A DNA stretch of 64,000 nucleotides. Source: an uncultured Methanosarcinales archaeon (GTDB taxonomy: Archaea; Nanobdellota; Nanobdellia; Woesearchaeales; UBA11576). Position numbers and translations under genes: made by a program. Position 1 is the first letter of the stretch. The number at the start of each line of letters is the position of its first letter. Location of the stretch: positions 146,998 to 210,997 of the forward strand of contig CAYOQS010000002.1 of assembly GCA_964406185.1 (NCBI GenBank), given 5' to 3'. Below, one piece after another: positions 29,370-56,378 of this stretch. The notes under the pieces are model-generated. The model saw only the letters and a list, made by a program, of their open reading frames with translations. It did not search any database and had not been told where the DNA came from.

Positions 29370-29394
29370 CCACCTTTCCTTTTCCGGAAAGAAC

Positions 29395-29550: not shown

Positions 29551-29711
29551 AGCGCGCGCTTTCTGGTTTTTGTAGGATACCCTATTTTACAGGGTGAGCT
29601 GTGCGTCGTCTCATTTTTGGGACGACAAGACTATAACAAAATACATGTTCAGCACGACAAATGCTTATAAGCTGACCATCACACTTTTCCAAAAAATTTA
29701 AGGGTGATACT

Positions 29712-30539: not shown

Positions 30540-30543
30540 TATC

Positions 30544-33586: not shown

Positions 33587-33616
33587 TCAAAAAAAAGAAA
33601 GACGAGGTGTATTGAC

Positions 33617-35536
33617 GTGTCAGATGGTGTGAATCTTGAAGACAGGATGCGGGAAGGGCTGATAGATTTCAGCGACATACGTTCTTTTGAGGGCCGCGAT
33701 GTCCTGAGGATAGGTGATTTCAACCGTGATGAGATAACCTACGTGATGGAGGTCGCGAGGCTGATAGGCGCTGAGCACAGGAGGAACAGGCATGACCTGC
33801 GTGGTTTCGAGTTCAATGACCTGCTCGAAGGTCTTGTCGTCGGCACTAACTTCGCTGAGAACAGTTCCAGGACGCATGACAGCAGCTGGTTCGCTGCGGA
33901 GAACCTGGGCGCTCATGTCGTGCCTGTGAGGCGGAATGCTGAAGGCACGTCGAAGGCGAAGGGCGAGTCGATCGCTCATGACATGGCGGCGCTCCAGTCT
34001 TACGGCATCCACGCGGTGGTGATGCGGAACAGCCTTGAGGGCTCGCCTCAATGGACTGCTGATTATCTGCGCGAACTTGCGGCTTCGCATCCTGAGGATC
34101 TTTTCAAGCCGGTCATCATCAATGGGGGTGACGGCAGCCATGAGCACCCTACCCAGGCTTTCCTCGATCTTCTCAACCTTTACACGATATATGATGTCGA
34201 TTTTGAGGGGGGGTCGCGCAAGCCTTACGGTGAGCTCAGGCGTGATGATGTGCTCTCGGGCATGACGATGCTTGCTGTCGGCGACACTCTCAAGGGCAGG
34301 ACGTTCAAGAGCCTTGCCCGTGCGCTTGCTCAGTTCGAGGACAATGAGGTAGTGATAGTATCTCCTGAAGAGGTCAGGTCTCCGGAGGACGCGATCCTTG
34401 ACCTGAAGAAGCGCGGCCTCAAGGTAGGGGCATTTGATTCCATAGGGGAGGCTATCAAGTACGTGAACAGCAGGAACAGGAAGAGTTTTGTCTATGGCCT
34501 GAGGACGCAGGAGGAACGGCTCGATCCGAAGGTGTTTGAGAAGGTAAAAGGGCTTGTCAACCTGACTCCGGGACTGCTTGACATGTATGAAGGTACCAAT
34601 ATCCTGCCTATCATGCATCCGCTTCCCATGCACAAGGGCCATCCTGAGATCCACCCGTCTATAGACTTCCGCAAGGAGGCGGTGTATTTCAGGCAGATGG
34701 GGATGGGGCAGTTCGCCAGGATGGCATTGCTCGGACTGACCCTCGGCAGGATTAGTACGTGTGCCGACGAGGAGGGCAGGACTTACACTGATCCCCGTAT
34801 CAGGGAGAACGGCAGCAGGTTTGTGGAGCTTGACAGGCCGGAGCATAAGGATGACCGTGAGAGCATGATAATGACCCTTGCTGAAATTGTCAGGTCTGGG
34901 GAAGGGATTGGTTGTCTCAGGGATTATGTGGGTATGATGGCTGAAAGCAGGGATGGCAAGGATGATGCTTCCTTGGTCGATCAGTATGTTGAGCTGTTCG
35001 CAAAGCTTACCGACGGCGGCAGGGCTTTGGAGCTTCTCAGGCACTTCACTTTCCGTTTCAGGGAAGGCGAGGACGGTTTTGTCATAGATCATATCGAGAA
35101 CGGCAGGACCGGCCTGATAAAGTACCATCTTGACCTTTCCCACCAGATCGGCAGGAAGGGTTGTGACGGGAATCCTGTGGTCGTGTCTGCTGTCGATGGT
35201 CTTGACAGCAAGAAGTATGGTCTGAAAGGGGTCATAAAGATGAGGGGATATGAGATGCCTGCTGATGATGCGCTGCAGTACTGCCATCTTCTGTCTAAGA
35301 CTCCTGTGGTCGTGACGATGATTAAGGACGGAAGGCCTGTGAGGAAGTTCACGCCTAACAAGCCTTATGAGATCCGTGATTTCATACACTGCCCGAACCC
35401 ATTGTGCGTCTCGCGGCAGGAGCACAGCGAGCACGTTCCGACAGTGTTTTATAATGTCGGCGGTGATGATTACCAGTGCAGGTTCTGCGACACGGCAGTT
35501 CCGAGGGAGCGGTTCAGGCTGATAAAGACAGACTGA
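33617..35536 (+). CDS. pyrB: aspartate carbamoyltransferase catalytic chain fused to regulatory chain (PyrB-linker-PyrI)
   Basis: SSRTH (STRTR-like), HPTQAFLD and HPLP motifs in residues 1-375. PyrI-like GFVIDHIENG... and zinc domain CPNPLC...CRFC lie in residues 487-639. GTG start. Confidence 0.85.
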   Translation: MSDGVNLEDRMREGLIDFSDIRSFEGRDVLRIGDFNRDEITYVMEVARLIGAEHRRNRHDLRGFEFNDLLEGLVVGTNFAENSSRTHDSSWFAAENLGAHVVPVRRNAEGTSKAKGESIAHDMAALQSYGIHAVVMRNSLEGSPQWTADYLRELAASHPEDLFKPVIINGGDGSHEHPTQAFLDLLNLYTIYDVDFEGGSRKPYGELRRDDVLSGMTMLAVGDTLKGRTFKSLARALAQFEDNEVVIVSPEEVRSPEDAILDLKKRGLKVGAFDSIGEAIKYVNSRNRKSFVYGLRTQEERLDPKVFEKVKGLVNLTPGLLDMYEGTNILPIMHPLPMHKGHPEIHPSIDFRKEAVYFRQMGMGQFARMALLGLTLGRISTCADEEGRTYTDPRIRENGSRFVELDRPEHKDDRESMIMTLAEIVRSGEGIGCLRDYVGMMAESRDGKDDASLVDQYVELFAKLTDGGRALELLRHFTFRFREGEDGFVIDHIENGRTGLIKYHLDLSHQIGRKGCDGNPVVVSAVDGLDSKKYGLKGVIKMRGYEMPADDALQYCHLLSKTPVVVTMIKDGRPVRKFTPNKPYEIRDFIHCPNPLCVSRQEHSEHVPTVFYNVGGDDYQCRFCDTAVPRERFRLIKTD

Positions 35537-43314: not shown

Positions 43315-43506
43315 CTTATTTCACCAGAAGCTAGAGAGCGTAATCTCGTGTTGTCAAGTTACGCAAAGCTCCCCCCCACCTCTCTAACCTGTTTTTTTTT
43401 TCTGTATATACTATGTTTTCAGGATTAATAAAGGTTGTTATAAGTCTTTTAAACTGATAAAGAAAGAATAAGTGGAAATAGAAAGATTTTGGAAAAAGGG
43501 AGGTCT

Positions 43507-44448
43507 TTACTCCTTTTTCTTCTTTTTCTTGGTCTTCTTGATCTCTTTTTCAAGGTCAAGCTTTTCGAGGAGCTCTTTGTACCTGTTCCTGATCGTGACT
43601 TCTGTCACTCCGGCCACGTCCGCCACTTCTCTTTGCGTCCTCTTCTCGCCATGTATCAGTGCTGATACGTATAGCGCCGCTGCTGCTATGCCTGTGGGAC
43701 CTCTTCCTGAGGTCAGCTCAGCCTTCTGGGCCTTCTCGAGTATCTCTACCGCTTTTGACTGTGTCTCTGCTGACAGCCTGAGTGAGCTTGAGAACCTTGC
43801 GATGTAGTCTGCAGGGTTTGAGGGCAGTATCGTGATGCCCAGCTCTCTGGTGACGAACCTGTAGGTCCTTCCGACCTCTTTCTTCTCTATGTTTGATGCT
43901 TCTGAGAGCTCGTCGAGTGTCCTTGGCACTTCATGCCTCCTGCATGCTGCGTAGAGCGAGCCTGCGACCACTGATTCCATGCTCCTTCCTCTCACGAGGC
44001 CTCTCTGCACTGCGAGGGTGTATATCCTTGCAGCCTCTTCCTCGACTGATTTCGGGAGTTTGAGGTATGAGCTGACTCTTTTCAGCTCTGCTAGCGCGAG
44101 TTTCAGGTTTCTTTCGATGGCTGTGCTTATCCTGTACTGCCATTTTCTGAGCCTGAAGAACTTGTTCTTGTCTTTTGACCCGAGCTTGTACAGGTCTGCT
44201 TTCTGCCCGACTTCTGTGCCGAGTCCCTGGTCGTACTGTGTGTACGTCATGGGAGCGCCTGTCCTGCGCTTGCTTTCGGTATCTTCGCTATCGAAGTCTC
44301 TCCATTCCTGTGTGAAGTCGACCATCTTCTCTTCGACGACAAGGCCGCAGTCTTTGCATATGACTTCTCCCTTGTCCTTGTTTATGAAGAGGTTTATCCC
44401 TCCACACTCCGGGCATTTCTTGATATATTCCTGGGTCATGATCGTCAC
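43507..44448 (-). CDS. tfb: transcription initiation factor IIB (TFB)
   Basis: Zn ribbon CPECGG...CKDCG, two cyclin-fold repeats (RGRSMESVVAGSLYAACR, GPTGIAAAALYVSA). SD AAGGTGA upstream. Lys-rich tail. Confidence 0.95.
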   Translation of the reverse strand: MTIMTQEYIKKCPECGGINLFINKDKGEVICKDCGLVVEEKMVDFTQEWRDFDSEDTESKRRTGAPMTYTQYDQGLGTEVGQKADLYKLGSKDKNKFFRLRKWQYRISTAIERNLKLALAELKRVSSYLKLPKSVEEEAARIYTLAVQRGLVRGRSMESVVAGSLYAACRRHEVPRTLDELSEASNIEKKEVGRTYRFVTRELGITILPSNPADYIARFSSSLRLSAETQSKAVEILEKAQKAELTSGRGPTGIAAAALYVSALIHGEKRTQREVADVAGVTEVTIRNRYKELLEKLDLEKEIKKTKKKKKKE

Positions 44449-44884
44449 CTTGATCGTTAGATAGAGCAGTCTGCCTGCTCTTTGGAAAGATTATTTATTT
44501 ACCACCCCAACTTTTTGCGAAAAAAATTTAAACCGTATTTATTTGAGTATCATGGTTACTACAATAGATTTATATAATTGTGATGTGCTTCTATATATAA
44601 ATATTTCGGTTTTGCGTAAGCTTTATATATTTCCGTAATGGTGAAAAAAGAAGCTGTTTAATGCTTTATATGATTTCTAAAGGAAATATGGGTGCTTTTT
44701 ATTGTTTTAGGGGGTTTATTAGGTTTTTTGGGGATTATTGATGATTTAAAGAGGTTTTCAAAGCCCTAAAATTTATATTCTGCTTTCCAAAGTTCTTTTT
44801 AAAGTCCGCCTGCCTTCTGATTTCTCTGCCCTGAAGATGGTGATGTGATCCACTCCATTTTCCCATATCCCTCCAAGAGATAGT

Positions 44885-44892
44885 TTTTTAAA
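44885..44892 (+). promoter_or_regulatory. TATA-like box (TTTTTAAA) upstream of the tRNA-Ser locus
   Basis: 31 nt before GCCGACG at 44924. No comparable box precedes the inner tRNA at 45033. Confidence 0.35.
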
Positions 44893-44923
44893 CAGAAATC
44901 TTAACCGCTCTCCCGGACCATTT

Positions 44924-45009
44924 GCCGACGTCGCATACTCAAAGCTTTTGGGCTTTGGTCGCGCCGTCAGCTTCATTCAAGACTGGAGAACCAGTTTCCT
45001 GACGGATAC
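44924..45009 (+). other. Ser-type tRNA 5' portion (acceptor 5' strand, D-arm region with hairpin insertion, variable-arm homologue), no T arm
   Basis: The first 17 nt match tRNA-Ser(UGA) at 14/17. 44977-45009 is 28/33 identical to 45109-45141. Contains hairpin CAAAGC-ttttgg-GCTTTG and a 7-bp helix CCGTCAG/CTGACGG. No canonical anticodon loop found. Confidence 0.4.
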
Positions 45010-45032
45010 ACAAAAAAATCCTTTGACGCTAA

Positions 45033-45166
45033 GCCAGCGTCGCATAATCTGGTACTTCGCGCGAGCGAAGGTTTACGCGAAGCGGAAAATTGCGCTGGTC
45101 TTGAAACCTCAAGACGAGATAACCAGTTTCCTAACGGATATCCCGGTTCAAATCCGGGCGCTGGCG
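45033..45166 (+). tRNA. tRNA-Ser(UGA), class II, with two insertions (D loop ~45055-45089; after position 37, 45106-45120)
   Basis: Acceptor GCCAGCG/CGCTGGC plus G. D stem GCAT/TTGC. Anticodon stem CTGGT/ACCAG with loop CTTGAA..A. Variable arm TTTCCTAACGGATAT. T arm CCCGG-TTCAAAT-CCGGG. Confidence 0.8.
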
Positions 45167-45185
45167 TCATATAGAAGGATTTTTT

Positions 45186-45290
45186 GGTACTGGAAACTCC
45201 TACGGAGTTTCCATGTATCCCGGTTCAAAATTTAAGCTACGCTTAAATGCTCAGCAAAGCGGAGCTTTGATGAATCTCCGGGCGTCGGCG
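45186..45290 (+). other. Ser-type tRNA 3' portion: perfect 10-bp hairpin, T arm split by a 47-nt insertion, 3' acceptor strand
   Basis: TGGAAACTCC-tac-GGAGTTTCCA (45191-45213). CCCGG TTCAAA [45230-45276] T CCGGG. CGTCGGC+G is the exact complement of GCCGACG at 44924. Confidence 0.45.
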
Positions 45291-45326
45291 TAACAAGCGT
45301 AAGCGGGTGGAGTTGGCGGACGGGCC
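45278..45326 (+). repeat. direct repeat R1 (begins in the tRNA 3' end)
   Basis: The 49 nt CCGGGCGTCGGCGTAACAAGCGTAAGCGGGTGGAGTTGGCGGACGGGCC recur at 46119-46167 with 3 mismatches. Confidence 0.9.
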
Positions 45327-45388
45327 AGCGCCCGAAGGGGGTAAGCGTGTCCGGGTGGAGGGTTTAGTTAGAAAAGAAAGTCCTGCTA

Positions 45389-45799
45389 TTATTTGCTCTT
45401 CAATATCTCGACTACTTCTTGTGTCTGGTATATCTTAACAGCATCCTGATCCTTCAATCGTTTATCGTTCGACCAGATTCCGCAATTCAATTTCATCGCC
45501 AATGCTAAATACATCGCGTCTTTTTCATCGGGAGAAATTAGTTTGGCTCGACCCGATAATTGAGCAGTTTCCTCTTTTGGAATGGTTGAGATAACTTCTT
45601 TTAGGCAATGCATGATTTCAATAAAATTCTCTCGTGTCCTTCCGGTCTTTTGCAGTATTAAATCTTCATATTTCATGAATTCTGTAATCAAGAATTCGGG
45701 AGCGTACAACTTTAAGTTCTCGTCGAACAACAATTCAGAAGTATAACTGTCTTTGATCAATGCGGCGAACAGGATATTTGCATCAAGAACAAGTTCCAT
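45389..45799 (-). CDS. vapC: PIN-domain toxin (VapC-like)
   Basis: MELVLDANILFAA (first acidic residue), later acidic residues, 136 aa. Abuts the upstream antitoxin gene. Confidence 0.8.
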   Translation of the reverse strand: MELVLDANILFAALIKDSYTSELLFDENLKLYAPEFLITEFMKYEDLILQKTGRTRENFIEIMHCLKEVISTIPKEETAQLSGRAKLISPDEKDAMYLALAMKLNCGIWSNDKRLKDQDAVKIYQTQEVVEILKSK

Positions 45800-46025: not shown

Positions 46026-46118
46026 ATTATCACCTTATGTGTATTACGTTTAATATGTATAATATGTTTATATATTTAAAGGTTTTGTTTAGCCATGCCT
46101 GATCCGTGCTGCTCGTGT

Positions 46119-46167
46119 CCGGGCGTCGGCGTAACGAGTGTAAGCGGGTGGAGCTGGCGGACGGGCC
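46119..46167 (+). repeat. direct repeat R2
   Basis: 46/49 identity to R1. Preceded by CTCGTGT, so 46112-46131 (CTCGTGTCCGGGCGTCGGCG) also repeats at 46186-46205. Confidence 0.9.
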
Positions 46168-46185
46168 CAGAGCATCTATGATGCT

Positions 46186-46205
46186 CTCGTGTCCGGGCGT
46201 CGGTG
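46186..46205 (+). repeat. short direct repeat R3 (tRNA 3'-end-like)
   Basis: CTCGTGTCCGGGCGTCGGTG, 19/20 identical to 46112-46131. Confidence 0.85.
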
Positions 46206-46216
46206 TTTTTATCCTC

Positions 46217-46567
46217 TCACATCCTCTCCATCCCGAATGACTTGAGCACATCCTTTATCTCATCGATCACTTTCTGTTGGTCTTTCTTTTCGGACATCCT
46301 GACGAATTTTATCAGAAGATGGGCTAGTTCATCTTCTGATGCGAACTTGAGCATGTGTCCGTCTGTGATGAAATAGAAGCGGTACTTGCCATGCTTCAGC
46401 TCTTTTATTGCTACTCCGCCGACATTTGCCAGGCTCTTTCCTTTCTTCGGGTGTCTCTCAAGAGACTTTAGTAGAAGGAATATCTTCCCTGATCCGCCTT
46501 TGAACCTGCGGATTACCTCCTTCACCAGGAGGTCAGTTATTATGACTCTGGCCATTTTTCTTGGCAT
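46217..46567 (-). CDS. RelE/ParE-like toxin (tentative)
   Basis: 116 aa. KELKHGKYRFYFITDG resembles the RelE/HigB-type core. Overlaps the upstream small antitoxin ORF by 35 nt as called, so the start is uncertain. Confidence 0.45.
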   Translation of the reverse strand: MPRKMARVIITDLLVKEVIRRFKGGSGKIFLLLKSLERHPKKGKSLANVGGVAIKELKHGKYRFYFITDGHMLKFASEDELAHLLIKFVRMSEKKDQQKVIDEIKDVLKSFGMERM

Positions 46568-46745
46568 AGGCTATCGCGTCATCTATGCTTACAGAGTCTG
46601 ATTCGTCGTACAGGTAGTCCCGCAGAAGCTGCTTGTGTGCGATCTCATACATCTTTCGTATGACATCTTCATATGAGTCGCCCGCCCTGCCGAGGTTGCG
46701 CAGCTTATCCTTCAGCTCGTTTGATATTGCTATTGTGGTTGCCAT
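46533..46745 (-). CDS. small antitoxin-like protein
   Basis: 70 aa. MATTIAISNELKDKLRNLGRAGDSYEDVIRKMYE (beta strand then helices). Positioned upstream of the toxin-like ORF. Confidence 0.5.
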   Translation of the reverse strand: MATTIAISNELKDKLRNLGRAGDSYEDVIRKMYEIAHKQLLRDYLYDESDSVSIDDAIAYAKKNGQSHNN

Positions 46746-46805
46746 ATATCATATAAGTTCTATAGAATATATAAATTTTTCTGTCTGACAGGGCGCAAAG
46801 CGTCT

Positions 46806-47978
46806 TTATGCTTGCTCGAACTCTTTCAATTGCTCTTCATAGCCTTCTTTTTCCAGGTCTTCTTTGGGTATGAACCGCAGCGATGCTGAGTTTATGCAGT
46901 ACCTGAGTCCTGTCGGTTCAGGCCCGTCATGGAACACGTGTCCGAGGTGTGAGTCCGCGTGCGCGCTCCTGACTTCTGTCCTTGTGCCGAAAAGTCCTGG
47001 GTCTTCTTTTTCAACTATGTTTGTGGGTTCGAGCGGTCTTGTGAAGCTCGGCCATCCTGTGCCTGACTTGAACTTGTCTTTTGAGCTGAACAGCACCTCT
47101 CCTGATACTATGTCCACGTATATGCCTTCTTCGTAGTTGTCCCAGTATTTGTTCTTGAACGGGGGCTCTGTGGCTTCGTTCTGTGTGACGTCGCACTGCA
47201 GCTTTGTGAGGTTCTTTTTGGCCTCTGCGTACTTGTCTTCCTGTGCTGCTGTCTCTTCTTCCTCTTCTTCTGTCAGGTCTGTCTCGTCGCCCCAGGTATT
47301 TTCTTTGAATGCTTTCCTTCCTGATCCGAGAGCGTAAAGCGCGTATCTGGCCTTGTGCTTCTCCCAGTAGTCCTGATGGTATTCTTCTGCCATGTAGAAC
47401 TCTTCTGCCTGTTTTATCTCTGTGGCTATTGGCTTGTCGAACTTGCCTGACATGTGCAGTTCTCTCTTGCTCTCTTCTGCGAGTCTTTTCTGCTTTTCAT
47501 CATGGTAGAATATCGCTGTCCTGTACTGCGGTCCCCTGTCTGCGAACTGCCCTTCTTCGTCGGTGGGGTCTATCTGCCTCCAGAATGTGTTGAGCAGGTC
47601 AGTATAGCTTATCTTTTCAGGGTCATACTTCATCTGTACCGCTTCGTAATGTCCTGTCGTGCCTGTGCTGACTTCTTTGTATGTAGGGTCTGGCTTGTCC
47701 CCTCCGGTGTAGCCTGACACCACGTCGGTGACGCCTTCGATGCCTTCAAACGCTTTTTCCATGCACCAGAAGCATCCTCCTGCGAACGTGGCTTTTTTCA
47801 TACCCTGATTGTCTTCTGGTCTTTCCATGGGTTCCGCCTCCTCTGGCATGGGCGCTTCCGCCATCGCGTCTTCCTGTGTGGTGATGCTGTCATGTCTGCT
47901 TTGCGTATCTGCCGCGCATCCTGAGAGCATAAGGATTGAAGCGATCATGATCAGGTGTAAGATTTTCACCGCTTTCAT
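46806..47978 (-). CDS. msrAB: bifunctional methionine sulfoxide reductase MsrA-MsrB, lipoprotein-type signal
   Basis: GGCFWCME (MsrA). [16 protein letters not shown] and GHVF (MsrB). N-terminal [11 protein letters not shown] lipobox. Confidence 0.9.
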
Positions 47979-48032
47979 CGTGTTGTGGACGTGACTGTTA
48001 TTTATAAACTTGTTCGTTTACCGACCCAAAAC

Positions 48033-48040
48033 TTAAATAT
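48033..48040 (+). promoter_or_regulatory. BRE/TATA (AAAAC TTAAATAT)
   Basis: 22 nt before the ATG at 48063. Confidence 0.5.
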
Positions 48041-48062
48041 TGATTGCTTATGATGTTTATGC

Positions 48063-48587
48063 ATGGTATGGTATAGCATATTCCTGGATTTTATATGGCA
48101 GATAGGCATTACTGTCTTCATAATGATTCTGGCTATAGTCCTTTACAAGGTGATGGGCCATGCCATAGCCAGGCACACTTTCAGGAGGAGTGTGGGCAAG
48201 CGTACTGAGGTCCTGACAAGGAAGGCGCTCGCGTGGATAACTGCTTTGGTCGCGGCTCTTATCATTGTGCTTCTTTGGGGCGGCAGTCTTGAGAACTTCT
48301 GGATATCTTTGACGAGCATCATCGCGGTGGTCGCTATAGGTTTTTTTGCTGTCTGGAGTATACTCAGCAATGTGGTGGCCGGCGTTATACTGCTGGTCTC
48401 CCGCCATATCAATGTCGAGGATCAGGTGGAGCTGATGCCTGATGGCGTGAAGGGAAGGATAAAGGACATAAGCCTTATGTTCGTGACGCTGGAGAGTGGG
48501 GGTGACAAGATACAGGTGCCTAACAATCTCATGCTTCAGCGCATGGTGAAGATAAAGATAAGGAGCAAGAAGGATTTCTTCCGCTGA
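48063..48587 (+). CDS. small MscS-type mechanosensitive channel
   Basis: Three TM helices, then the pore-helix/beta-domain pattern SNVVAGVILLVSRHINVEDQVEL...GRIKDISLMFVTLE. Confidence 0.7.
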   Translation: MVWYSIFLDFIWQIGITVFIMILAIVLYKVMGHAIARHTFRRSVGKRTEVLTRKALAWITALVAALIIVLLWGGSLENFWISLTSIIAVVAIGFFAVWSILSNVVAGVILLVSRHINVEDQVELMPDGVKGRIKDISLMFVTLESGGDKIQVPNNLMLQRMVKIKIRSKKDFFR

Positions 48588-48947
48588 ACTGTCAACAGCA
48601 TTTTTGTATTTGTTTAGCTGTTTCTACCTGCGCCGCCACTGTCCTCTTGCGTTTTGACGGGCTAGCGCAGCGTCAACTTAGGTGCGCGGCCCTCAATACA
48701 GTTACGTGGCGGCTGCCCTTTGAAACCATCATGCACAAAAACTTCGCCAGAAGTTTTTGGGTGGGGTTTCTTTCAGCATCAAAGATGCTGTAAGCCTTCA
48801 AGGAAACCTTGAAGTGACACCCCGCCCTTTAGGGCTGGGTAAGGTGCTTTCGGCCGATTTTTATGATGTCATTTTCTTCGCAGTGCCTGCTCCTCTAGCA
48901 CTGGCGTGGCGCCGCAGAGTAAGAAGCTAAACAAATGCTTTTTTTTC

Positions 48948-49568
48948 TTATTCTCTTTCTTGCTCTTTCTCGTAGAGCCCGTATATCTCTGTTCTCTCAA
49001 GCACGTGGTCTTCTATCTCTTTCTCAAGTTCTGCTTTTGTCGAGCTTACGGGTATGTCAAGCTTCTTGTCGAGCGCGTAGAGCTTGAAGAAGTACCTGTG
49101 CTTTCCTGACGGCGGGCACGGCCCTCCGTATTCGTGTTTCTTGAAGTCGTTCATGCCCTGTTCTGCCCCTTCAGGCACGCTGCCCTCTTCGAAATCTGCT
49201 TCAGGAGGTATGTTCCATACCACCCAGTGCACCCAGTTCCCGCCTGGCGCGTCCGGGTCGTCTACGATGAGCGCGAGGCTCTCGGTTCCTTCAGGCACGC
49301 CGGTCATGCTCAGCGGTGGGCTTGTGTCCTGGCCCTGGCATGTGTACTTTTTTGGTATGTCTTCTTTGTGCTTGAATGCTGTGCTTGTTATTTCCATTTT
49401 TTCCTCTTGTTCTGCTTCTTGTTCTTTTAATTGTGTGGGCGCTGCCTGTGCCTGCTCTGTCACGGGAGTCTCTGCCTGGCTTCCGGTGTTCATGTCTCCA
49501 TCGGTTGCGCAGCCTGCAAGCAGTATTATGGCGGTTAGTGCGAGAATTAAGATGCTCATCTCTTTCAT
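48948..49568 (-). CDS. YbhB/YbcL (PEBP) family protein, lipoprotein-type signal
   Basis: LIVDDPDAPGGNWVHWVVWNIP and GPCPPSGKHRYFFKLYAL. N-terminal ILLAGC. Confidence 0.8.
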   Translation of the reverse strand: MKEMSILILALTAIILLAGCATDGDMNTGSQAETPVTEQAQAAPTQLKEQEAEQEEKMEITSTAFKHKEDIPKKYTCQGQDTSPPLSMTGVPEGTESLALIVDDPDAPGGNWVHWVVWNIPPEADFEEGSVPEGAEQGMNDFKKHEYGGPCPPSGKHRYFFKLYALDKKLDIPVSSTKAELEKEIEDHVLERTEIYGLYEKEQERE

Positions 49569-49695
49569 GCACAGGATTATGGATTGCGTGTTTAATAAGG
49601 TTTTGTATATTCATAACCGCTATCATGGTTGTTTTCGAAATCCGTAAATTCCTTTTCCCAAACCTTTAAGAATGCTCCTGCCCTGAAAATATTGT

Positions 49696-50295
49696 ATGGG
49701 GTTGAGGGAGATCGTCATCACAGCGTGCGCGGCAGCGGCTCTTGCTCTGCCTGCGTGCCGTTACCAGAACATGAACGCGGTCAATGCAGATGGTTTGACC
49801 GCTCCGTTCTATGACCTCGAGTGCCATTTCGAGTCTTCTTCTGATGATGGTTTTGAGCAGGACGTCGCATTCTCTTTCACCCCTTACGGCTGTTCCTGCA
49901 ACCCCCGGATGAGTTACGCAGTAGGTACTGGGGAGGGGCAGGAATTGGAGCGAAGGTTCGAGCTTGACTTTGAGCTCAGCGCGGCAGGTGATACGCATGT
50001 TCATGCGACTTCTACATATATGGGCGGACCTCAGCAGATATTTATGTACGCCCGTTCCGACCCCGGGGCGACGATGCAGGAGTTGCCTATGCAGGGAGGT
50101 TCTGCCGAAGAGCAGGTCATACGAGAGAGGATGATCGAGATGTGGGATGGACTCTGGCCCATGTTCTACGATGAGACTATCTCGGGCGGGGGTCCTGTCA
50201 TGGATCGCATGTTCCGTGTATGTGTGGAGGATGGAATAAGCTCTCAGGCAGATGTTATTTCAGAAGAGGTTTTCTTCATAAGGGAAACATACTGA
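49696..50295 (+). CDS. hypothetical secreted/lipoprotein
   Basis: Signal-like ITACAAAALALPAC. No family recognised. Confidence 0.5.
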   Translation: MGLREIVITACAAAALALPACRYQNMNAVNADGLTAPFYDLECHFESSSDDGFEQDVAFSFTPYGCSCNPRMSYAVGTGEGQELERRFELDFELSAAGDTHVHATSTYMGGPQQIFMYARSDPGATMQELPMQGGSAEEQVIRERMIEMWDGLWPMFYDETISGGGPVMDRMFRVCVEDGISSQADVISEEVFFIRETY

Positions 50296-50311
50296 TCATA
50301 TCAATGTCGTA

Positions 50312-51037
50312 TCAGTAGTTGAACTTGAGTCCGTTCGACAGCATGCTCTGCTCGACAGGTCTTTCCTCTTTCTTCTGCGCGAAGCCGATCTTCTTGAGCT
50401 TCTGCGCTATCTCGCACAGGACCGTGGTGTGGTATGAGGGGTGCTCGAACATGTCTGTCTCTGCGTTTATCGCTAGCTTGTGGTGCGGATACTCATCAAA
50501 TAGTTTGTCGTAGTTGTCGTTGAGCTTCTGCAGGTATTCCATGTCTATCTGTTTCTCCTCATCCCTGCCTCTCTTGAGTATCCTTTTCTTGAGCACGTTG
50601 ACGTCGTTGACCTTGAGGTAGACGAGCAGTGTGGGCGGGCTGAAGCTGTTGCATATCTCCTTGTATGTCTTCTCATACACGAAGTATTCGAGCTCGTGCA
50701 TGTTTCCCATGGCGAAGTTGGTGTCTCCGAATACCTGCTTGTCCTCGAATATGGTCCTGTCCTCGACCGCGATGCCGGGGAATTCATTTATCCTCTTCAG
50801 CGTGCCCAGCCTGAGCGAGAAGTAGTACATCTGCGATGCGAAGGCCCATCTTTTCTTGTTCTTGTAGAACTCTCCGAGAAGCCGCTTGTCTATATTCTCC
50901 TGGAATGCCTTTATGCCTTCTCCGTTCCGCAGGAAGCTGAGCAGCAGTGCCCTGCTCGGCTCTTTGAGAGCCTGCTGGGTGAACTCAGTCTTTCCCACTC
51001 CTATGTTGCCTGCGAATGCTAGATGTATTTCAGCCAT
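50312..51037 (-). CDS. deoxynucleoside kinase family protein
   Basis: P-loop FAGNIGVGKTEF, ERTIFEDKQVF (ERS-type motif), Arg-rich lid KRILKRGRDEE. Confidence 0.75.
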   Translation of the reverse strand: MAEIHLAFAGNIGVGKTEFTQQALKEPSRALLLSFLRNGEGIKAFQENIDKRLLGEFYKNKKRWAFASQMYYFSLRLGTLKRINEFPGIAVEDRTIFEDKQVFGDTNFAMGNMHELEYFVYEKTYKEICNSFSPPTLLVYLKVNDVNVLKKRILKRGRDEEKQIDMEYLQKLNDNYDKLFDEYPHHKLAINAETDMFEHPSYHTTVLCEIAQKLKKIGFAQKKEERPVEQSMLSNGLKFNY

Positions 51038-51161
51038 CTTAACCCATCAGAATGGGCTTGAGAGGGCTTGTAGATTATATAAACTTTTTGTCGGTTTTTT
51101 CCAAATGTTTTAAATACTAGTGTGGGTTTAAAAAGGCCATTAACCAAAAAAGGTGATCTTG

Positions 51162-51728
51162 ATGAAGAGGCTTTTTATGTTCATTGTCATTCTTGTGTTC
51201 ATCTTCGCTCTGGGCTGCGCAGAAGAAGCTCCCGCTCCGAAAGAGATAGAGGCTCCTGAGCCAGCTCCCGCTCCTGAGATGAAGCAGGTCGAGGATGTGC
51301 CGGAGGAGGAAGATGTTGGTGAGCCGCCTGGAACCGAAGTCTCTGATCCTGAGTCGGAGTACAAGGTGGCTTCTGAAGAGGAGGACCCAACGCCTATGGG
51401 CTCCCGTGTCGAGGGCACAGAGCAGGATGCTGCAGAAGAAGAGGTCAGTGACGAGGATATCGAGGAGATAGGCCTCACTGCAGAGAAGATCATGACCTCC
51501 AGCAACATGACTGTCAGTGTGGGCACGACACTTGCCTGGAAGAACTATGATTCCTGGCCTCACCAGCTCGCTGTGGAGTCAGGCAGCGGATGGGATACTG
51601 TGCGCCATGCAGAGTCTGACAGGCTGCTTGAGGGCAATGTCTGGGAGTACACTTTCGAGGAGAAAGGCACTTTCCTTGTCCGCGACATATTCTCAGGCCC
51701 TATGAGGATGTATGTGACAGTGGAATGA
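51162..51728 (+). CDS. cupredoxin-fold lipoprotein with acidic linker
   Basis: Start at ATG 51162 after SD AAAGGTGAT. Lipobox FALGC. The C-terminal ~95 aa has a beta-sandwich pattern like plastocyanin-family proteins, but the Cu ligands are not obvious. Confidence 0.6.
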   Translation: MKRLFMFIVILVFIFALGCAEEAPAPKEIEAPEPAPAPEMKQVEDVPEEEDVGEPPGTEVSDPESEYKVASEEEDPTPMGSRVEGTEQDAAEEEVSDEDIEEIGLTAEKIMTSSNMTVSVGTTLAWKNYDSWPHQLAVESGSGWDTVRHAESDRLLEGNVWEYTFEEKGTFLVRDIFSGPMRMYVTVE

Positions 51729-51740
51729 GGCAGTAATCTT

Positions 51741-51748
51741 TTTATATT
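51741..51748 (+). promoter_or_regulatory. TATA box (TTTATATT) 25 nt before tRNA position +1
   Basis: Same spacing as at the leaderless mRNAs in this window. Confidence 0.45.
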
Positions 51749-51773
51749 CTCTCTTTTTCTTTTATTCTCAAAC

Positions 51774-51968
51774 GCCACCGTGGCACAATCCGGTACAGGT
51801 CATGACCAGTTGTCTGGTCGCCGATTGCGGCGGTCTCGAAACGCAAGCTGTGATCAAGAACTGAGCTGTTGCGATTCGCGTAAACCGCTTTCCTTCGGGA
51901 TATCCCGGTTCAAATATCAAAGCGGGGCTTTGATGCTCAAGCTTTGCTTGAAAGTCCGGGCGGTGGCG
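51774..51968 (+). tRNA. tRNA-Ser(CGA), class II, with three insertions (D loop 51796-51824; after position 37, 51841-51882; T loop 51916-51955)
   Basis: Acceptor GCCACCG/CGGTGGC plus G. D stem GCAC/TTGC. Anticodon stem GCGGT/ACCGC with loop CTCGAA..A. Variable arm TTTCCTTCGGGATAT. T arm CCCGG-TTCAAAT...CCGGG. 195 nt against about 87 mature. Confidence 0.8.
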
Positions 51969-51995
51969 TTGTTTTTTCCCTATGTTTATCTTCTC

Positions 51996-52454
51996 TCACC
52001 CAAATGTATAAGTGTCCATCTCCCAGTCTTTGAGTTTCATGTTTACTCTTATCTTCTCTGTCTTGTCCGGGTAGTATGGCCTGTCGCGCATGAATGTCAT
52101 CTCGACTATCCAGCACCCTTCACATCCTGACTTTGCTGCGTTGAGCACGTTGGTGCCTCTTCCTCTGTAGTCTTTGAACCCTGCCAGTGTCTCCAGCTCT
52201 TGTTTGGCGACTGCTATGGCTTTCTCTTTCTCTTCATCAAAGCTCATCTCCGGCTCTGGTTCGGGTTCCGGTTCTGGCTCCGGGGCTGTGTATTCCTGTT
52301 CCGGCTCTTCAAATTTTTCTTCGGTTTTCTCTTCTGCCTGGACCGGTCCTGTCTCTACAGGTTCGGAACTGAGTGTCCCTGGCTGCTGCATCACTCCACA
52401 GCCTGCTATAAGAATAGTTAAAACCACAAAAAACAAAAGGTATACATGTCTCAT
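51996..52454 (-). CDS. hypothetical lipoprotein with PE-repeat linker
   Basis: Lipobox LIAGC. (PE)n acidic linker. Small C-terminal domain. Confidence 0.55.
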   Translation of the reverse strand: MRHVYLLFFVVLTILIAGCGVMQQPGTLSSEPVETGPVQAEEKTEEKFEEPEQEYTAPEPEPEPEPEPEMSFDEEKEKAIAVAKQELETLAGFKDYRGRGTNVLNAAKSGCEGCWIVEMTFMRDRPYYPDKTEKIRVNMKLKDWEMDTYTFG

Positions 52455-52540
52455 CTTACCACCCCATAAGTGATACTGCTCAATAATGGCTTGTAGGATA
52501 TAAAGTTTGCTTCTTTCCCTATCTTTCAGTTAATAGAAAC

Positions 52541-52548
52541 TTTAAAAA
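52541..52548 (+). promoter_or_regulatory. BRE/TATA (GAAAC TTTAAAAA)
   Basis: 23 nt before the ATG at 52572. Confidence 0.5.
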
Positions 52549-52571
52549 GGCAGGTTCCGCTACAGGATTTC

Positions 52572-53306
52572 ATGGTCACTATAGCGCATATTTCCGACCT
52601 GCACTGCGGCAGCAGGGGATTCTATCCTAAGAAGCTTTCTGCTGCGATCAAGGAGATCAACAGGCTCAGGCCTGACGCGGTTGTAGTCACCGGAGACCTC
52701 ACGCATTCGGGTTTCAGGGACAACTACATTCTCGCGAAGAGATATCTTGACAGGATAAAGGCTGAGAAGCTTATAGTGCCGGGCAATCATGACGCAAGGC
52801 TGTGCGGCTATAAGTATTTCGATGAGTTCTTCGGGCATGGCAACAACAAGGTATCCCTGGATGGTGTGAAGATATTGGGTATTGACACGACCGTGCCTGA
52901 CCTTGATGAGGGTGATGTTGGCCGTGGCAAGCTGCGCTGGCTTGAGTCTGAGTTGAATAAGATGCCTGACGGCCATAAGATCATCGCGATGCACCACCAT
53001 CTGGTTTCCATACCTGATACGGGAAGGGAACGTTCCACTGTGGCTGACGCGGGTGATGTGCTGAAGACTCTTGTTAAGGGTGGTGTTGACCTGGTGCTGT
53101 GTGGGCACAAGCACACGCCTTACTCGTGGCTTGTCAATGACGTGGCGATAGTGAATGCGGGTTCTGTGTCGTGCAGGAAGCTGCGCGCGCATATCAACAA
53201 CAGTTATAACATGATCAAGATCAAGGACGGTTCTATCGAGGTCTTACTTAAGGAGATAGGCAAGAGGCCTGTGTCCATGGCGGTGTATGAGCACACGCCG
53301 GAATGA
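52572..53306 (+). CDS. calcineurin-like metallophosphoesterase
   Basis: ISDLHCG, GDLTH, GNHD, MHHH and GHKH motifs in canonical order. Confidence 0.8.
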   Translation: MVTIAHISDLHCGSRGFYPKKLSAAIKEINRLRPDAVVVTGDLTHSGFRDNYILAKRYLDRIKAEKLIVPGNHDARLCGYKYFDEFFGHGNNKVSLDGVKILGIDTTVPDLDEGDVGRGKLRWLESELNKMPDGHKIIAMHHHLVSIPDTGRERSTVADAGDVLKTLVKGGVDLVLCGHKHTPYSWLVNDVAIVNAGSVSCRKLRAHINNSYNMIKIKDGSIEVLLKEIGKRPVSMAVYEHTPE

Positions 53307-54015
53307 GTGGGTCGTGAAGATGGGTTCGGGCATGCCAATCAAGGATGCGAAGAAGCTTAAGCTTGACGTCACTTACAGGCGCGGCTTTGCTGTGAGCAAG
53401 AGTGTTTCTGTGGTCGTCAACTCTGCAAATGGCTTCCTTCTTCTTGGCACGAGCGGTGCAGGCGCTATCCGTGAGAGGTCGCAGCCTTTGACTCCTGCAG
53501 AGCGGCACGAGTATAAGCGTCTTCTCAACCGCCTTCCGCGGGATGTGAAGAATGATTACATCCGCGTGTACAGGGAGCGCGGCTGGAGGCCGACTTATGC
53601 CCAGCTTGGCTGCCTGCGCCTGCTGGTCGCGAAGCCGGGTAACCGGTTCAGGCGTGGTGATGCTGTGCTGCAGAAGGAATGGTCAAGGTCTGACGCGCGT
53701 CCGTTGATACATGCTGTGGGTATGTCTTACCGTCTTCGCATGCATGACTCTTCGCGTCTTCCTGCTACGGATGCGTCGATCCGAAATTCGGTAAGGAAGA
53801 GCCTGGCGATAGCGGACCGTCTCGGCGCGAGGAGCATAGCTCTTCCGGTCATGTGTGCCCGTCCGACTTACGGTCTTGGCCCTGAGACTTCATTCAGGAT
53901 AATCAGGAAAACGATAGATTCTTTCAGGGGCTCTTCATTGCGCCGTGCTGTGCTCTGCTTCGATAATAAGGTGACTTCAGATTTTCTTGCGCGTCTTTCT
54001 GATGGTAAGAAGTGA
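53287..54015 (+). CDS. macro-domain-like protein (tentative)
   Basis: VVNSANGFLLLGTSGAGAIRE resembles the macro-domain NAAN...GGG motif. The start may be ATG 53320. Confidence 0.5.
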   Translation: MSTRRNEWVVKMGSGMPIKDAKKLKLDVTYRRGFAVSKSVSVVVNSANGFLLLGTSGAGAIRERSQPLTPAERHEYKRLLNRLPRDVKNDYIRVYRERGWRPTYAQLGCLRLLVAKPGNRFRRGDAVLQKEWSRSDARPLIHAVGMSYRLRMHDSSRLPATDASIRNSVRKSLAIADRLGARSIALPVMCARPTYGLGPETSFRIIRKTIDSFRGSSLRRAVLCFDNKVTSDFLARLSDGKK

Positions 54016-54140
54016 TAGTTTGGCAGAGGGTTCTGATTGTTGATTTTTATACCCTTCAGCTTGCTGCGGGAAAAAAAATTCTCCACTTCTTAGTGGTCTG
54101 ATGCTTCTGGGCGGTATATCGTAATATGATGCCAAACATT

Positions 54141-54148
54141 TTTAAATA
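54141..54148 (+). promoter_or_regulatory. BRE/TATA (CCAAACA TTTTTAAATA)
   Basis: 22 nt before the ATG at 54171. Confidence 0.5.
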
Positions 54149-54170
54149 TTGTATAGCTGTATGATCTAAA

Positions 54171-56378
54171 ATGGTGGTGAAGAAGACCGGCTCGAGAAGC
54201 CTCGGGATGTTTGTAGGTGTGTTCGTCCCGACTTTCCTTACCATCATGGGTGTTATACTTTTCCTGCGCCTTGGTTTTATCGTGGGCGCTGGCGGTGTCC
54301 TTCCTGCTCTTCTCATAATATTTCTCGCGACTTCTGTCACTATCGCAACAGGCCTCTCGCTGAGTTCGATCACGACCAATATCAAGATAGGTGCGGGCGG
54401 TGTTTATTCTATCGTCTCAAAGACTTTGGGTATGGAGATCGGCGGCAGTGTCGGCATCCCTCTTTTCCTGGCGCAGGTCTTCTCTGTGGCGCTTTACCTG
54501 TTCGGTTTCACCGAGGTGTGGCGGTACATTTTCCCTGACCATCCTAAGATACTGGTGGTCGCGGGCGCGTTCATCCTGATACTTCTCCTGACTTACACGA
54601 GCACCAAGTGGGCGCTTAAGGCGCAGATTTTCGTGTTCGCCATCCTTGTCGCGTCGATAATATCTGTCTTTGCTGGCGGCGGCTGGTGGACTTCTTCCAT
54701 GCAGATACCGCTTATAGGCTCTTTTGAGGGTACTGATTTCTGGAAGCTTTTCGCATTGTTCTTTCCTGCCGTGACAGGTCTTATGGCGGGTATAGGCATG
54801 TCGGGTGAGCTTACAAATCCCAAGAAGCAGATCCCGCGCGGTGTGCTGACAGCTCTTGGCGTTACGACTGTGGTGTACATGGTCATGGTGTTCTGGTTTG
54901 CCTTCAGCACATCTCCCGGCACTCTGTTGGGCAACAACCTGGCTATCGTCGAGCTTGCGGCATTCAGTCCCCTGGTGCTTGCAGGCATACTGGCCTCGAC
55001 TTTCTCGAGCGCATTGACCACCGCTGTTGCCGCGCCGAGGATAATGCAGGCCATGAGCGACAATTCGCTGCTTCCTTTCAGTGATTTCCTTGCTAGGAAG
55101 ACCAAAAGAGGTGAGCCGAAGCACGCGATAATGGTCACTGCTTTCCTTTTGGCCATTGTCCTTCTCAGCGGCGGTATAGATGCTGTCGCGCCTGTCCTGA
55201 CCATGATCTTCCTGTGGGCTTACGCTCTGATAAACATGGTAGTGTTCATAGAGCAGTCGATGGGCCTTGTGAGCTACCGGCCGACTTTCCGCATCCCCCG
55301 TTTCGTTCCTTTCTATGGCATGGTCGCTTCGGTGGTGTTTGCATTCTACATTAACCTGATAGCGGGAATCATGGCGTTCAGCCTTCTCGTCCTGACTTAC
55401 CTTTTCCTTGTTCACAGGAACCTTAAGCAGACTGAAGGCACTGTGAGGTCAGGTCTTTTCATCGCGATCTCTGAGTGGGCTGCCAAGAAGGTCATCTCCC
55501 TTGCCGAGTCCAAGGAGCACATCTGGAAGCCTAACTTTCTCCTGCCTGTGATCGACACGAGGAATCTTGAGGGCTCTTTCCCTGTCGTCAAGTCTATAGC
55601 TTATCCTGACGGCACGCTTTCAGTGCTGGGCATGAACCTGAAGAGCAGGAAGCTCTACAAGGGAAGCAAGCTTTCAGAGAAGGAGATGAAGGAGGACCTC
55701 AAGATGATCCCCGGGCTTGTTAAGAAGTTCAGCGGAGAGGGTGTTTTCACGAACTATTCTGAGATCAAGGCGGATGATTTTGACAGCGCGATAAACGTAT
55801 CGCTCCAGGCCGTCCGCGGCCAGGTGTTCCATCCTAACATGATATTTCTCCCTATCCATTCGATGAAGCTGGACGTGAAGGGGATAGGCAAGCTGATCAG
55901 GACAGCGAAGAGGACTGATGCGGGTGTGGTGCTTTTCAATAAGGATCTTGCTCTCGGTCTTGGTTCTGAGGAGGATATCCATGTGTGGATGCCCTCGATA
56001 CTTCCTGAGGATGATGAGGGTTTCCATGATTTCGTGAGGGGCTGCCATTTCGACCTGGCGCTTCTTGTCGCTTATAAGATATACAAAAACTGGGCAGGCA
56101 ATATCCATCTTAGGATGTGCGTTGAGAAGAAGCAGGAGGATGCGGCGAAGGCTTACCTGCGCAAGCTCGTGCAGGAGGCCAGGTTCCCTCCTTCAACTGA
56201 TATCCAGGTCTATACAGATACGCTCAACAGCGCGATGCGCAAGGTGCAGGGCGGCGACATACATATCATGCCTGTCAAGGACCTTTCTGACCTGCGCAGG
56301 GTTATGCGGAGCACTGAGAAGATATCGCGGACTTACCTGTTCGTGATGGACTCCGGCCTGGAGGATGTGCTTGCATGA
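54171..56378 (+). CDS. APC-superfamily cation-chloride-cotransporter-like permease with cytosolic C-terminal domain
   Basis: About 12 TM helices with an amino-acid-permease pattern (FFPAVTGLMAGIGMSGEL). A ~280-aa soluble C-terminal domain as in SLC12-type archaeal homologues. Confidence 0.7.
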   Translation: MVVKKTGSRSLGMFVGVFVPTFLTIMGVILFLRLGFIVGAGGVLPALLIIFLATSVTIATGLSLSSITTNIKIGAGGVYSIVSKTLGMEIGGSVGIPLFLAQVFSVALYLFGFTEVWRYIFPDHPKILVVAGAFILILLLTYTSTKWALKAQIFVFAILVASIISVFAGGGWWTSSMQIPLIGSFEGTDFWKLFALFFPAVTGLMAGIGMSGELTNPKKQIPRGVLTALGVTTVVYMVMVFWFAFSTSPGTLLGNNLAIVELAAFSPLVLAGILASTFSSALTTAVAAPRIMQAMSDNSLLPFSDFLARKTKRGEPKHAIMVTAFLLAIVLLSGGIDAVAPVLTMIFLWAYALINMVVFIEQSMGLVSYRPTFRIPRFVPFYGMVASVVFAFYINLIAGIMAFSLLVLTYLFLVHRNLKQTEGTVRSGLFIAISEWAAKKVISLAESKEHIWKPNFLLPVIDTRNLEGSFPVVKSIAYPDGTLSVLGMNLKSRKLYKGSKLSEKEMKEDLKMIPGLVKKFSGEGVFTNYSEIKADDFDSAINVSLQAVRGQVFHPNMIFLPIHSMKLDVKGIGKLIRTAKRTDAGVVLFNKDLALGLGSEEDIHVWMPSILPEDDEGFHDFVRGCHFDLALLVAYKIYKNWAGNIHLRMCVEKKQEDAAKAYLRKLVQEARFPPSTDIQVYTDTLNSAMRKVQGGDIHIMPVKDLSDLRRVMRSTEKISRTYLFVMDSGLEDVLA

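Follow-up and report, generated by a model that had tools for sequence, protein, structure and literature searches.

How do the same few mini-hairpins come to lie inside interrupted tRNA genes and also between genes of a single archaeal chromosome? The question arises at the tRNA-Ser(CGA) gene of a 64-kb stretch of contig CAYOQS010000002.1 (the window, meaning the whole stretch analysed), in which a T-loop insert at 51915-51954 contains two tandem hairpins whose stem words recur elsewhere. The original prediction treated these hairpins as one propagating, mobile or templated, family of intron-like modules shared by tRNA introns and unrelated loci. The hairpin pattern is real, and it is a known intron phenomenon in a new variant form. 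We consider it likely that the insert represents an intron of the bulge-helix-bulge (BHB) type at position 59/60 of tRNA-Ser(CGA), and that its hairpin words were copied within the lineage.

The T-loop insert of tRNA-Ser(CGA) has the form of a bulge-helix-bulge intron

In a BHB motif each strand runs from a flanking helix through a 4-bp central helix and a 3-nt bulge to another flanking helix, and the archaeal splicing endonuclease cleaves after the second base of each 3-nt bulge. The insert at 51915-51954 fits this geometry exactly: the 5-bp T stem CCCGG/CCGGG is followed by four pairs between TTCA (T-loop positions 54-57) and TGAA (51949-51952), leaving the bulges AA↓T and AG↓T (arrows mark the expected cut). 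Strict motifs, with 4/4 central pairs and a flanking helix, were present at 51915-51954, 45230-45276, 51797-51825, 45054-45088, 45106-45120 and 20747-20775 (Table 1). After splicing at the predicted BHB sites, ARAGORN called tRNA-Ser(cga), tRNA-Ser(tga) and tRNA-Val(gac), and the same removal restored tRNAs of L088, L089 and L092 (L-numbers denote related loci: a TFB-anchored set of 79, dNK-anchored loci, and L080, which came from a metagenome scan). The proposal that the tRNA inserts are introns is supported: they obey the BHB rule and their removal restores cloverleaves.

On the raw window DNA, ARAGORN called one tRNA only, with wrong borders (tRNA-Val at 20757-20828; the true start is 20727), and an Rfam search over the window gave nothing at gathering score, because the tRNA genes are interrupted. 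Such interruptions explain why most of the tRNA genes escape ARAGORN and the tRNA model of Rfam, and the missed tRNAs bias estimates of the tRNA complement of DPANN genomes.

By analogy with archaeal tRNA splicing, the T stem of the precursor would stack on the 4-bp helix formed by T-loop TTCA with intron TGAA. This stacking would expose the two 3-nt bulges, the endonuclease would cleave each strand behind the second base of its bulge, and the exons would be ligated by RtcB. The mini-hairpins are the intron interior. Their repeated words probably arise through copying within the lineage, by tandem duplication of hairpins, by exchange among paralogous tRNA-Ser genes and by exchange between the intron positions of those genes; the ends required by the BHB would stay fixed and the interior would turn over.

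Hairpin words recur far above chance

All of the hairpins listed in the original prediction were present, at positions within 1 nt. Most coordinates were exact, and two needed a shift: the core placed at 20907-20921 lies at 20908-20922, and the hairpin placed at 20929-20945 lies at 20930-20946. Counted within the window, each stem word occurs two to six times where at most one occurrence is expected, so the stems are not at the frequency set by composition. The pattern CAAAGCNNNGCTTTG (CAAAGC-N3-GCTTTG) was found twice (0.00 expected), TCAAGCNNNGCTTGA (TCAAGC-N3-GCTTGA) twice (0.01 expected), TTCAAG..CTTGAA three times (0.03 expected) and AAGCNNNGCTT (AAGC-N3-GCTT) six times against 0.92 expected, a count reached in 0/100 shuffles; GCATCNNNGATGC (GCATC-N3-GATGC) has three exact copies. 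In all, 29 perfect hairpins combine a 3-nt loop with a stem of 6 bp or more, compared with 16.1 +/- 4.0 in first-order Markov randomisations, and the surplus falls in non-coding regions.

These counts argue against chance, and the identities between copies given below support the view that the hairpin words are homologous. There are two word families, AAGC/GCTT in Ser-tRNA introns and GCATC with TTCAAG elsewhere, and the only links between the two are remnants derived from tRNA-Ser (r46 and r20) and one composite hairpin in relatives. Sharing rather than independent origin was therefore a sound part of the original prediction, but the single family that it drew across unrelated loci resolves into two.

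The T-loop introns can adopt two alternative folds

The two T-loop introns of the window each have outer arms that can pair, since the opening arm of hairpin 1 is the complement of the closing arm of hairpin 2: CAAAGC matches GCTTTG at 51943-51948 in one, and TTTAAGC matches GCTTTGA in the other. The BHB-competent form, calculated with its BHB pairs enforced, came to -21.4 kcal/mol for 51915-51954 versus -20.2 kcal/mol as twin hairpins, and 45230-45276 at -21.2 versus -17.5 kcal/mol; in the enforced BHB fold, the inner helix abuts both bulges. The folding calculations suggest that the twin mini-hairpins are one of two near-isoenergetic folds, the other being a canonical inner BHB helix. Complementarity and fold energies together indicate that the 'tandem hairpins' are an alternative reading of a canonical hBHBh' intron, and two folds are possible because the interior is built from the repeated self-complementary word YAAAGC/GCTTTR. 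Two tandem hairpins within a host helix is hence a fair description, but for the two T-loop inserts it captures one fold of two. Tandem hairpins of relatives resemble their neighbours (L024, L040 and L006), which indicates local duplication of the hairpin unit.

Intron positions are kept and interiors turn over

We compared the two T-loop introns with each other and with their counterparts in relatives. The segment CAAAGCGG[G/A]GCTTTGATG is identical at 17/18 positions between the two window introns, the identity spans the loop, and the linkers are also identical. The hairpins with arms ATCAAAGC/GCTTTGAT and ATTTAAGC/GCTTAAAT are set apart only by the loop and by two compensatory changes of base pairs, and the same GCTCA follows both. 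The two host genes encode Ser isoacceptors and do not differ in their T arms, and no non-Ser tRNA in the window carries a shared intron word.

Among the 79 related loci, about 18 further tRNAs have a 59/60 intron in which TTCR is paired to the intron 3' segment, and most of these introns end GAAAG↓T. Inside, a single closing hairpin is the usual form, in several cases with a 3-nt loop. Introns with the ending ...TGAAAG↓T are common in the relatives and have unrelated interiors, which argues that lineage-internal copying accounts for the words shared in this genome. The tRNA-Ser(CGA) ortholog of L088, identified beside a dNK gene 83% identical to that of the window, has three introns as well; its 59/60 intron is an unrelated single hairpin, and its D-arm intron is at another position. 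For the TFB-linked tRNA-Ser(UGA), a T-loop intron is present in L007, L008, L016 and L029, with a different interior in each, and is missing in L001, in L003 or in the window's inner gene (Table 1). The presence/absence variation that the original prediction had raised for orthologous loci was thus seen in tRNA genes, as kept positions with unrelated interiors or as absence of the intron. A kept position with a replaced interior is the pattern termed intron transposition in Thermoproteales (PMC4033280, PMC4090602).

Hairpins of the CAAAGCATC type occupy a different intron position of tRNA-Ser genes in relatives. In L089 and L092 the CAAAGCAT(C) hairpin lies at the variable-arm/T-arm junction of Ser genes, with CAAAGC and GCATC both within its stem, and a copy of the CAAAGC hairpin is found in the L093 leader.

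Table 1. Positions of interrupted tRNA genes, predicted introns, hairpins and structured RNAs in the window
Feature	Position	Strand	Remarks
tRNA-Ser(CGA) gene, three introns	51774-51968	+	acceptor GCCACCG/CGGTGGC; spliced form called as 84-nt tRNA-Ser(cga) by ARAGORN
Predicted D-arm BHB intron, tRNA-Ser(CGA)	51797-51825	+	central helix CGGT/GCCG 4/4; inner helix 5 bp
Predicted canonical 37/38 intron, tRNA-Ser(CGA)	51841-51882	+	central helix 3/4, outer 6 bp, relaxed BHB
Predicted 59/60 T-loop BHB intron, tRNA-Ser(CGA)	51915-51954	+	equals 51916-51955 since T51915 = T51955
Mini-hairpin ATCAAAGC-GGG-GCTTTGAT	51916-51934	+	5' arm can alternatively pair with GCTTTG 51943-51948, giving the inner BHB helix
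Mini-hairpin TCAAGC-TTT-GCTTGA	51937-51951	+	3' arm overlaps the TGAA pairing with T-loop TTCA
Outer tRNA-Ser-like gene, 5'-truncated	44924-45290	+	architecture as in L092, L093, L089 and L006
Conserved 5' leader	44924-44982	+	apical hairpin 44940-44957; homologous leaders before tRNA-Ser genes in L093, L092 (two) and L006
Hairpin CAAAGC-TTTTGG-GCTTTG	44940-44957
Variable-arm/T-arm junction element	45009-45217	+	hairpin 1 arms 45011-45023/45175-45186, then GTAC, hairpin 2 (45191-45213)
Inner tRNA-Ser(UGA), complete	45033-45166	+	introns D-arm 45054-45088 and 37/38 45106-45120, both strict BHB; spliced form tRNA-Ser(tga)
Predicted 59/60 T-loop BHB intron, outer gene	45230-45276	+	hairpins 45230-45248 and 45255-45269; TTCA/TGAA central, outer 5 bp
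Hairpin CAAAGC-GGA-GCTTTG	45255-45269
r46, small transcription unit of tRNA-Ser 3'-end fragments	46098-46205	+	contains hairpin 46169-46187
Hairpin AGAGCATC-TAT-GATGCTCT	46169-46187
r48, structured RNA, ~296 nt	48627-48922	+	paired ends; twin hairpins 48774-48814; z = -4.9
Hairpin CAGCATC-AAA-GATGCTG	48774-48790
Hairpin CTTCAAGG-AAA-CCTTGAAG	48796-48814
r27, structured RNA	27684-27916	+	twin hairpins 27726-27771; extra hairpin 27780-27796; z = -10.9
Hairpin CAGCATC-AGA-GATGCTG	27726-27742
tRNA-Val(GAC)	20727-20828	+	D-loop BHB intron 20747-20775; central 4/4, outer 3 bp, inner 9 bp
r20 hairpin	20890-20970	+	T-arm-like stem (GATAATCCCGG../..TCGGGATTATC), tandem G-A pairs, TTCAAGC and CAGCAT hairpins in loop
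Hairpin TTCAAGC-TCT-GCTTGAA	20907-20923		6-bp core 20908-20922
Hairpin CAGCAT(T)-TAT-(G)ATGCTG	20930-20946

Hairpins outside intact tRNA genes lie in tRNA-Ser remnants and structured RNAs

The layout of r46, '..GCC-hairpin-(CG)TG-TCCGGGCGTCGG', matches 'GGTAC-CAAAGCATC hairpin-TG-TATCCCGG' of L089 and L092, and its GCATC hairpin at 46169 looks like a relic of the conserved variable-arm/T-arm junction intron. In r20 (structure z = -5.3), the stem word GATAATCCCGG resembles the flank of a T arm, and an insert-free copy lies at 20840-20875. Within 20906-20955, TTCA (20907-10) and TGAA (20945-48) form 4/4 pairs and are followed by AG, the bulges are AG↓C and AG↓A, and the outer helix has 3 bp with two G-U pairs; the splice product does not match the insert-free copy. 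Judged by these resemblances, the hairpins at 46169 and 20907-20946 appear to sit in remnants derived from tRNA-Ser or its T arm. No ortholog of r20 or r48 was found in the 79 TFB-anchored loci or in the dNK-anchored loci.

The tRNA-Ser 3' end and a trailer of ~36 nt are repeated at 45277-45365 and 46114-46205, with a PIN-domain gene (45389-45799) between the copies. A TATA-like box near 46068 belongs to the second of these, which ends in a T5 run. In L088, as in the window, the trailer and then a second 3' end lie downstream of tRNA-Ser(CGA). The repeated 3' ends could be integration remnants or a functional trailer.

The twin hairpins of the structured RNAs r27 and r48 are homologous over ~45 nt (YTCTTY-CAGCATC-ANA-GATGCTG-YAAGC-YTTCAAG). 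A metagenome scan with this module pattern returned a single ortholog, that of r27 in L080. Between the two, the block 27713-27784 is identical at 69/72 positions (96%), compared with 54/96 (56%) in the middle of the RNA; as the best-conserved segment, the r27 module is better read as a functional RNA domain or core than as an intron-like passenger. The original prediction had included both modules among the intron-like elements, and here it is not supported: at their borders, as at the ends of r48, there is no strict BHB, and no candidate at the module borders joins 4/4 central pairs with a host helix. Each module is probably a functional domain of its RNA, not an intron. The extra r27 hairpin GCTTGAC-TTC-GTCAAGC is absent from L080 and resembles a reverse-complement copy of the preceding GCTTG, in a part where the alignment is weak.

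Signal recognition particle (SRP) RNA and RNase P RNA were considered as identities of r27, and neither gave a consistent model or a covariance model match. The r27 5' end carries SRP-helix-8-like words (ACCA..GUCAGG..GCAGC), and a GAAGUC motif is also present. In r48 a long terminal stem is followed by an oligo-T run. A further large structured RNA lies upstream of TFB in L047 (4800-5400, minus strand), with three twin-hairpin modules and GTGC/GCAC linkers, and these modules are built similarly to the variable-arm/T-arm junction twin hairpins of the window. At permissive E values (up to 10), Rfam returned only noise for 20-29.8 kb and 42-53 kb of the window, for r27 and r48, and for L047 and L080; r27, r48 and the L047 RNA match no Rfam family by covariance model.

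Alternative explanations for the shared hairpins

A known intron class whose members were copied inside and among tRNA-Ser loci accounts for the sequence comparisons better than does one mobile module that invades unrelated genes. Closest to the original prediction is the idea that twin-hairpin modules form one propagating cassette family and are transferred whole among tRNA introns and further RNA genes, with excised circular intron RNA or templated DNA synthesis as examples of a route. Words that recur far above chance would be expected of such a family, as would the ~45-nt homology of the r27 and r48 modules and the CAAAGCATC hairpin of relatives, which joins both word families at another intron position. 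The r20 element ends TTCA...TGAAAG like the T-loop introns and holds the same two hairpins in reverse order, which would fit circular permutation, although that argument is based on three short copies; and GCTTGAC-TTC-GTCAAGC, present in the window and not in L080, looks like a snap-back copy of GCTTG. We nonetheless regard a cassette family as unlikely, given that r27 and r48 lack BHB borders, that the r27 module is strongly conserved and present in the ortholog, that no empty site was found for any non-tRNA copy, and that sharing between the T-loops involves paralogous Ser genes at the same position. Of the proposed mobility, the comparisons support copying in tRNA-Ser loci, not a mechanism of movement.

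Convergence, in which independent hairpins become alike through T-loop TTCAA pairing, a preference for closing 3-nt loops with a C-G pair, and stems rich in A/T, is disfavoured and seems to us very improbable. T-loop pairing does force TGAA or TTGAA near the 3' end of every 59/60 intron, and many long 3-nt-loop hairpins in relatives end GC-NNN-GC or CC-NNN-GG. Yet such constraints would hardly produce two T-loop introns that match at 17 of 18 positions, loop included, with identical linkers; relatives under the same constraints have unrelated stems, and the ~66 hairpin pairs would yield ~0.02 identical 6-mers by chance, where several were seen. We give just as little credence to palindromic mobile elements acting at the DNA level (MITE/PATE, REP-like, or IS200/IS605-type hairpin ends) and inserted in RNA genes. 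Perfect Watson-Crick stems closed by 3-nt loops are what DNA hairpins typically show, contigs of the Logan assemblies end at 46165 and 48754/48920, beside hairpins, and tRNA 3'-end repeats flank the PIN gene. However, stems covary or differ between species with the layout kept, which argues for selection on RNA structure and not for a transposase site; the 29-nt tRNA-Val intron has an inner hairpin with G-U pairs and a 3-nt loop; no transposase was found in the window; and the inserts are located exactly where BHB excision restores tRNAs.

Several points weigh against our preferred reading of BHB introns with interiors copied among tRNA-Ser loci. The cut rule is the canonical one for archaeal splicing and is validated here only by the resulting cloverleaves, and cleavage, ligation and circular introns at these loci are all deduced from sequence. 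Loose and relaxed BHB scans were uninformative, with dozens of chance candidates, and the 64-kb window has no gene for the EndA endonuclease or the RtcB ligase. At the junction element 45009-45217, borders giving GGATA↓TCCC reach at most 3/4 central pairs and have no flanking helix. Paralogy alone does not seem to explain the threefold co-occurrence of GCATC with TTCAAG (r20, r27 and r48), nor the composite CAAAGCATC stem in which relatives join both word families.

A tRNA-Ser gene lies complete within another tRNA-Ser gene

The second T-loop intron of the window belongs to a compound locus, in which a complete tRNA-Ser gene lies in the loop of a 12-14-bp hairpin within the variable-arm/T-arm junction intron of another tRNA-Ser gene. 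The outer gene consists, in order, of a leader, an anticodon/variable-arm remnant, the junction intron, a T arm with its intron, and the acceptor 3' strand; the promoter region upstream matches that of L001. The junction runs from hairpin 1, which has the inner tRNA in its loop, through GTAC and hairpin 2 to TG, and L006, L089 and two L092 genes share this layout, with stems of unrelated sequence. The inner tRNA is flanked by stems of 12-14 bp, unrelated in sequence, in the window and in the two L092 genes.

The leader comprises a copy of the acceptor 5' strand with GCAT, after which come a small hairpin and a strand that is complementary in part, and its L093 counterpart has an identical CAAAGC/GCTTTG hairpin stem. 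The original prediction assigned the hairpin at 44940-44957 to a D-loop insertion; it is instead the tip of this conserved 5' leader, as L092, L093 and L006 indicate. An assignment of 44924-45008 to a tRNA 5' body was tried with 95,920 one- and two-deletion variants, which gave only poor, inconsistent ARAGORN calls. Comparison with L092, L093 and L006 identified 44924-45008 as the fusion of a leader with a truncated tRNA body. The leaders occupy 44924-44982 in the window, 3621-3688 (minus strand) in L093, 2455-2521 and 6466-6532 (minus strand) in L092 and 9420-9490 in L006. The nested loci span 44924-45290 in the window, 2455-2792 and 6466-6885 (minus strand) in L092, 4296-4515 in L089 and 9190-9490 in L006.

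In L092 the Ser(UGA) and Ser(CGA) loci each have an intact outer and an intact inner gene, and ARAGORN called all four as tRNA-Ser after manual splicing. The stems on either side of their inner genes are perfect, measure 13 and 14 bp, and differ in sequence. The L089 and L006 nested loci look like recombination derivatives. A limited literature search found no report of a tRNA nested in a tRNA intron, which is not proof of absence.

A broader, tentative proposal, to which we attach well under even odds, is that the twin-hairpin intron at the tRNA-Ser variable-arm/T-arm junction of this clade can hold a second complete tRNA-Ser, so that one transcript yields two tRNAs, and that the hairpin words are copied cassettes. 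RNase P and RNase Z would free the inner tRNA, pairing in the 12-14-bp stem of hairpin 1 would keep the outer halves together, and these would be joined in the manner of Nanoarchaeum split tRNAs. CAAAGC, GCATC and TTCAAG cassettes would be copied among intron positions, leaders, tRNA remnants and structured RNAs. If true, this would give a live view of the origin of BHB introns and split tRNAs.

In Nanoarchaeum equitans, the halves of split tRNA genes are held together by complementary flanks and are trans-spliced. Maturation of the nested loci may be split-tRNA-like, in that the 12-14-bp helix would hold the outer halves after excision of the inner tRNA. Unlike the split genes, both halves here belong to one locus with a whole tRNA gene between them, and the junction has no strict BHB.

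Relation to known disrupted tRNA genes

Many disrupted tRNA genes have been reported in DPANN lineages, Woesearchaeota among those surveyed (PMC5829648). The introns of the window resemble the non-canonical BHB introns of Thermoproteales, ARMAN and other DPANN archaea in their 3-nt bulges and 4-bp helix, in the restored cloverleaf, and in the presence of several introns per gene, one of them in the T-loop. They differ in an interior made of repeated self-complementary words with two alternative folds, and the 59/60 position with its ...GAAAG↓T end is very regular in the Woesearchaeota relatives.

In Thermoproteales, resemblance between introns of different tRNAs was interpreted as intron transposition, as summarised in PMC4033280 and PMC4090602. 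Common to that account and to the window are similar introns in different tRNA genes of one genome and orthologs that differ. By contrast, sharing in the window is confined to tRNA-Ser isoacceptor genes and remnants, it concerns hairpin sub-modules and not introns as a whole, and structured RNAs other than tRNAs have similar hairpins too.

In Caldiarchaeum subterraneum, tRNA fragments beside tRNA genes were left by integrating elements (PMC3293823, as described in PMC4033280). The window likewise has duplicated tRNA 3'-end pieces beside an intact gene, where they flank the PIN-domain gene. It differs from that case in having no recombinase, and in fragments that carry conserved hairpins and a leader and recur in several genera.

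The shape of the hairpins also invites comparison with a replication process. Intrastrand template switching during DNA replication can create hairpins, and the window resembles its products in perfect stems with minimal loops and in the hairpin at 27780-27796, which is like a reverse-complement copy of GCTTG and absent from L080; this last resemblance comes from one alignment in a poorly conserved stretch.

The lineage thus offers closely related genomes with kept intron positions, swapped interiors, visible duplication of hairpin sub-modules and tRNA genes inside intron hairpins. It bears on how archaeal tRNA introns are gained, moved and lost and on the origin of split tRNA genes, and the loci supply concrete predicted splice junctions.

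Host and assembly context

The window is a 64-kb piece of archaeal chromosome that encodes TFB, an ATP-dependent DNA ligase, PolX and pyrimidine-synthesis genes. The closest TFB genes (up to 99% identity) come from metagenome-assembled genomes labelled Woesearchaeota or Nanoarchaeota. Judged by its TFB relatives and archaeal gene content, the host is a Woesearchaeota-like DPANN archaeon. A phage or virus origin was rejected: megablast gave no match, and the genes are those of a cell.

Two samples yielded independent Logan assemblies with 100% identity to the window over 43393-45306, 46165-48754, 48920-55568 and 27472-34568, so the nested tRNA locus, the tRNA-Ser(CGA) gene at 51.9 kb and the other covered stretches are not assembly artefacts. 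The Logan contigs of the same organism stop, in the two samples, at 45306, 46165, 48754 and 48920; these ends adjoin the r46 hairpin and flank the r48 module on both sides, and they may reflect population variants or coverage gaps at hairpins. A 198-bp tandem repeat (~2.3 copies, 98-99% identity) lies directly upstream of r27 at 27046-27501, and Logan contigs end within it.

Three tandem perfect hairpins also occur in frame at 7520-7606 of L024, inside an open reading frame for a methyltransferase-kinase fusion. They encode a low-complexity insert directly before the NPPY motif, and could represent a translated insertion or an mRNA intron. Among the protein-coding genes of the window, those at 8924-17347, 30490-32316 and 33617-35536 comprise a 2807-aa protein with more than 20 PKD repeats and fused pyrimidine-synthesis genes, the fusions being DHODH with an Fe-S subunit domain and PyrB joined to PyrI.

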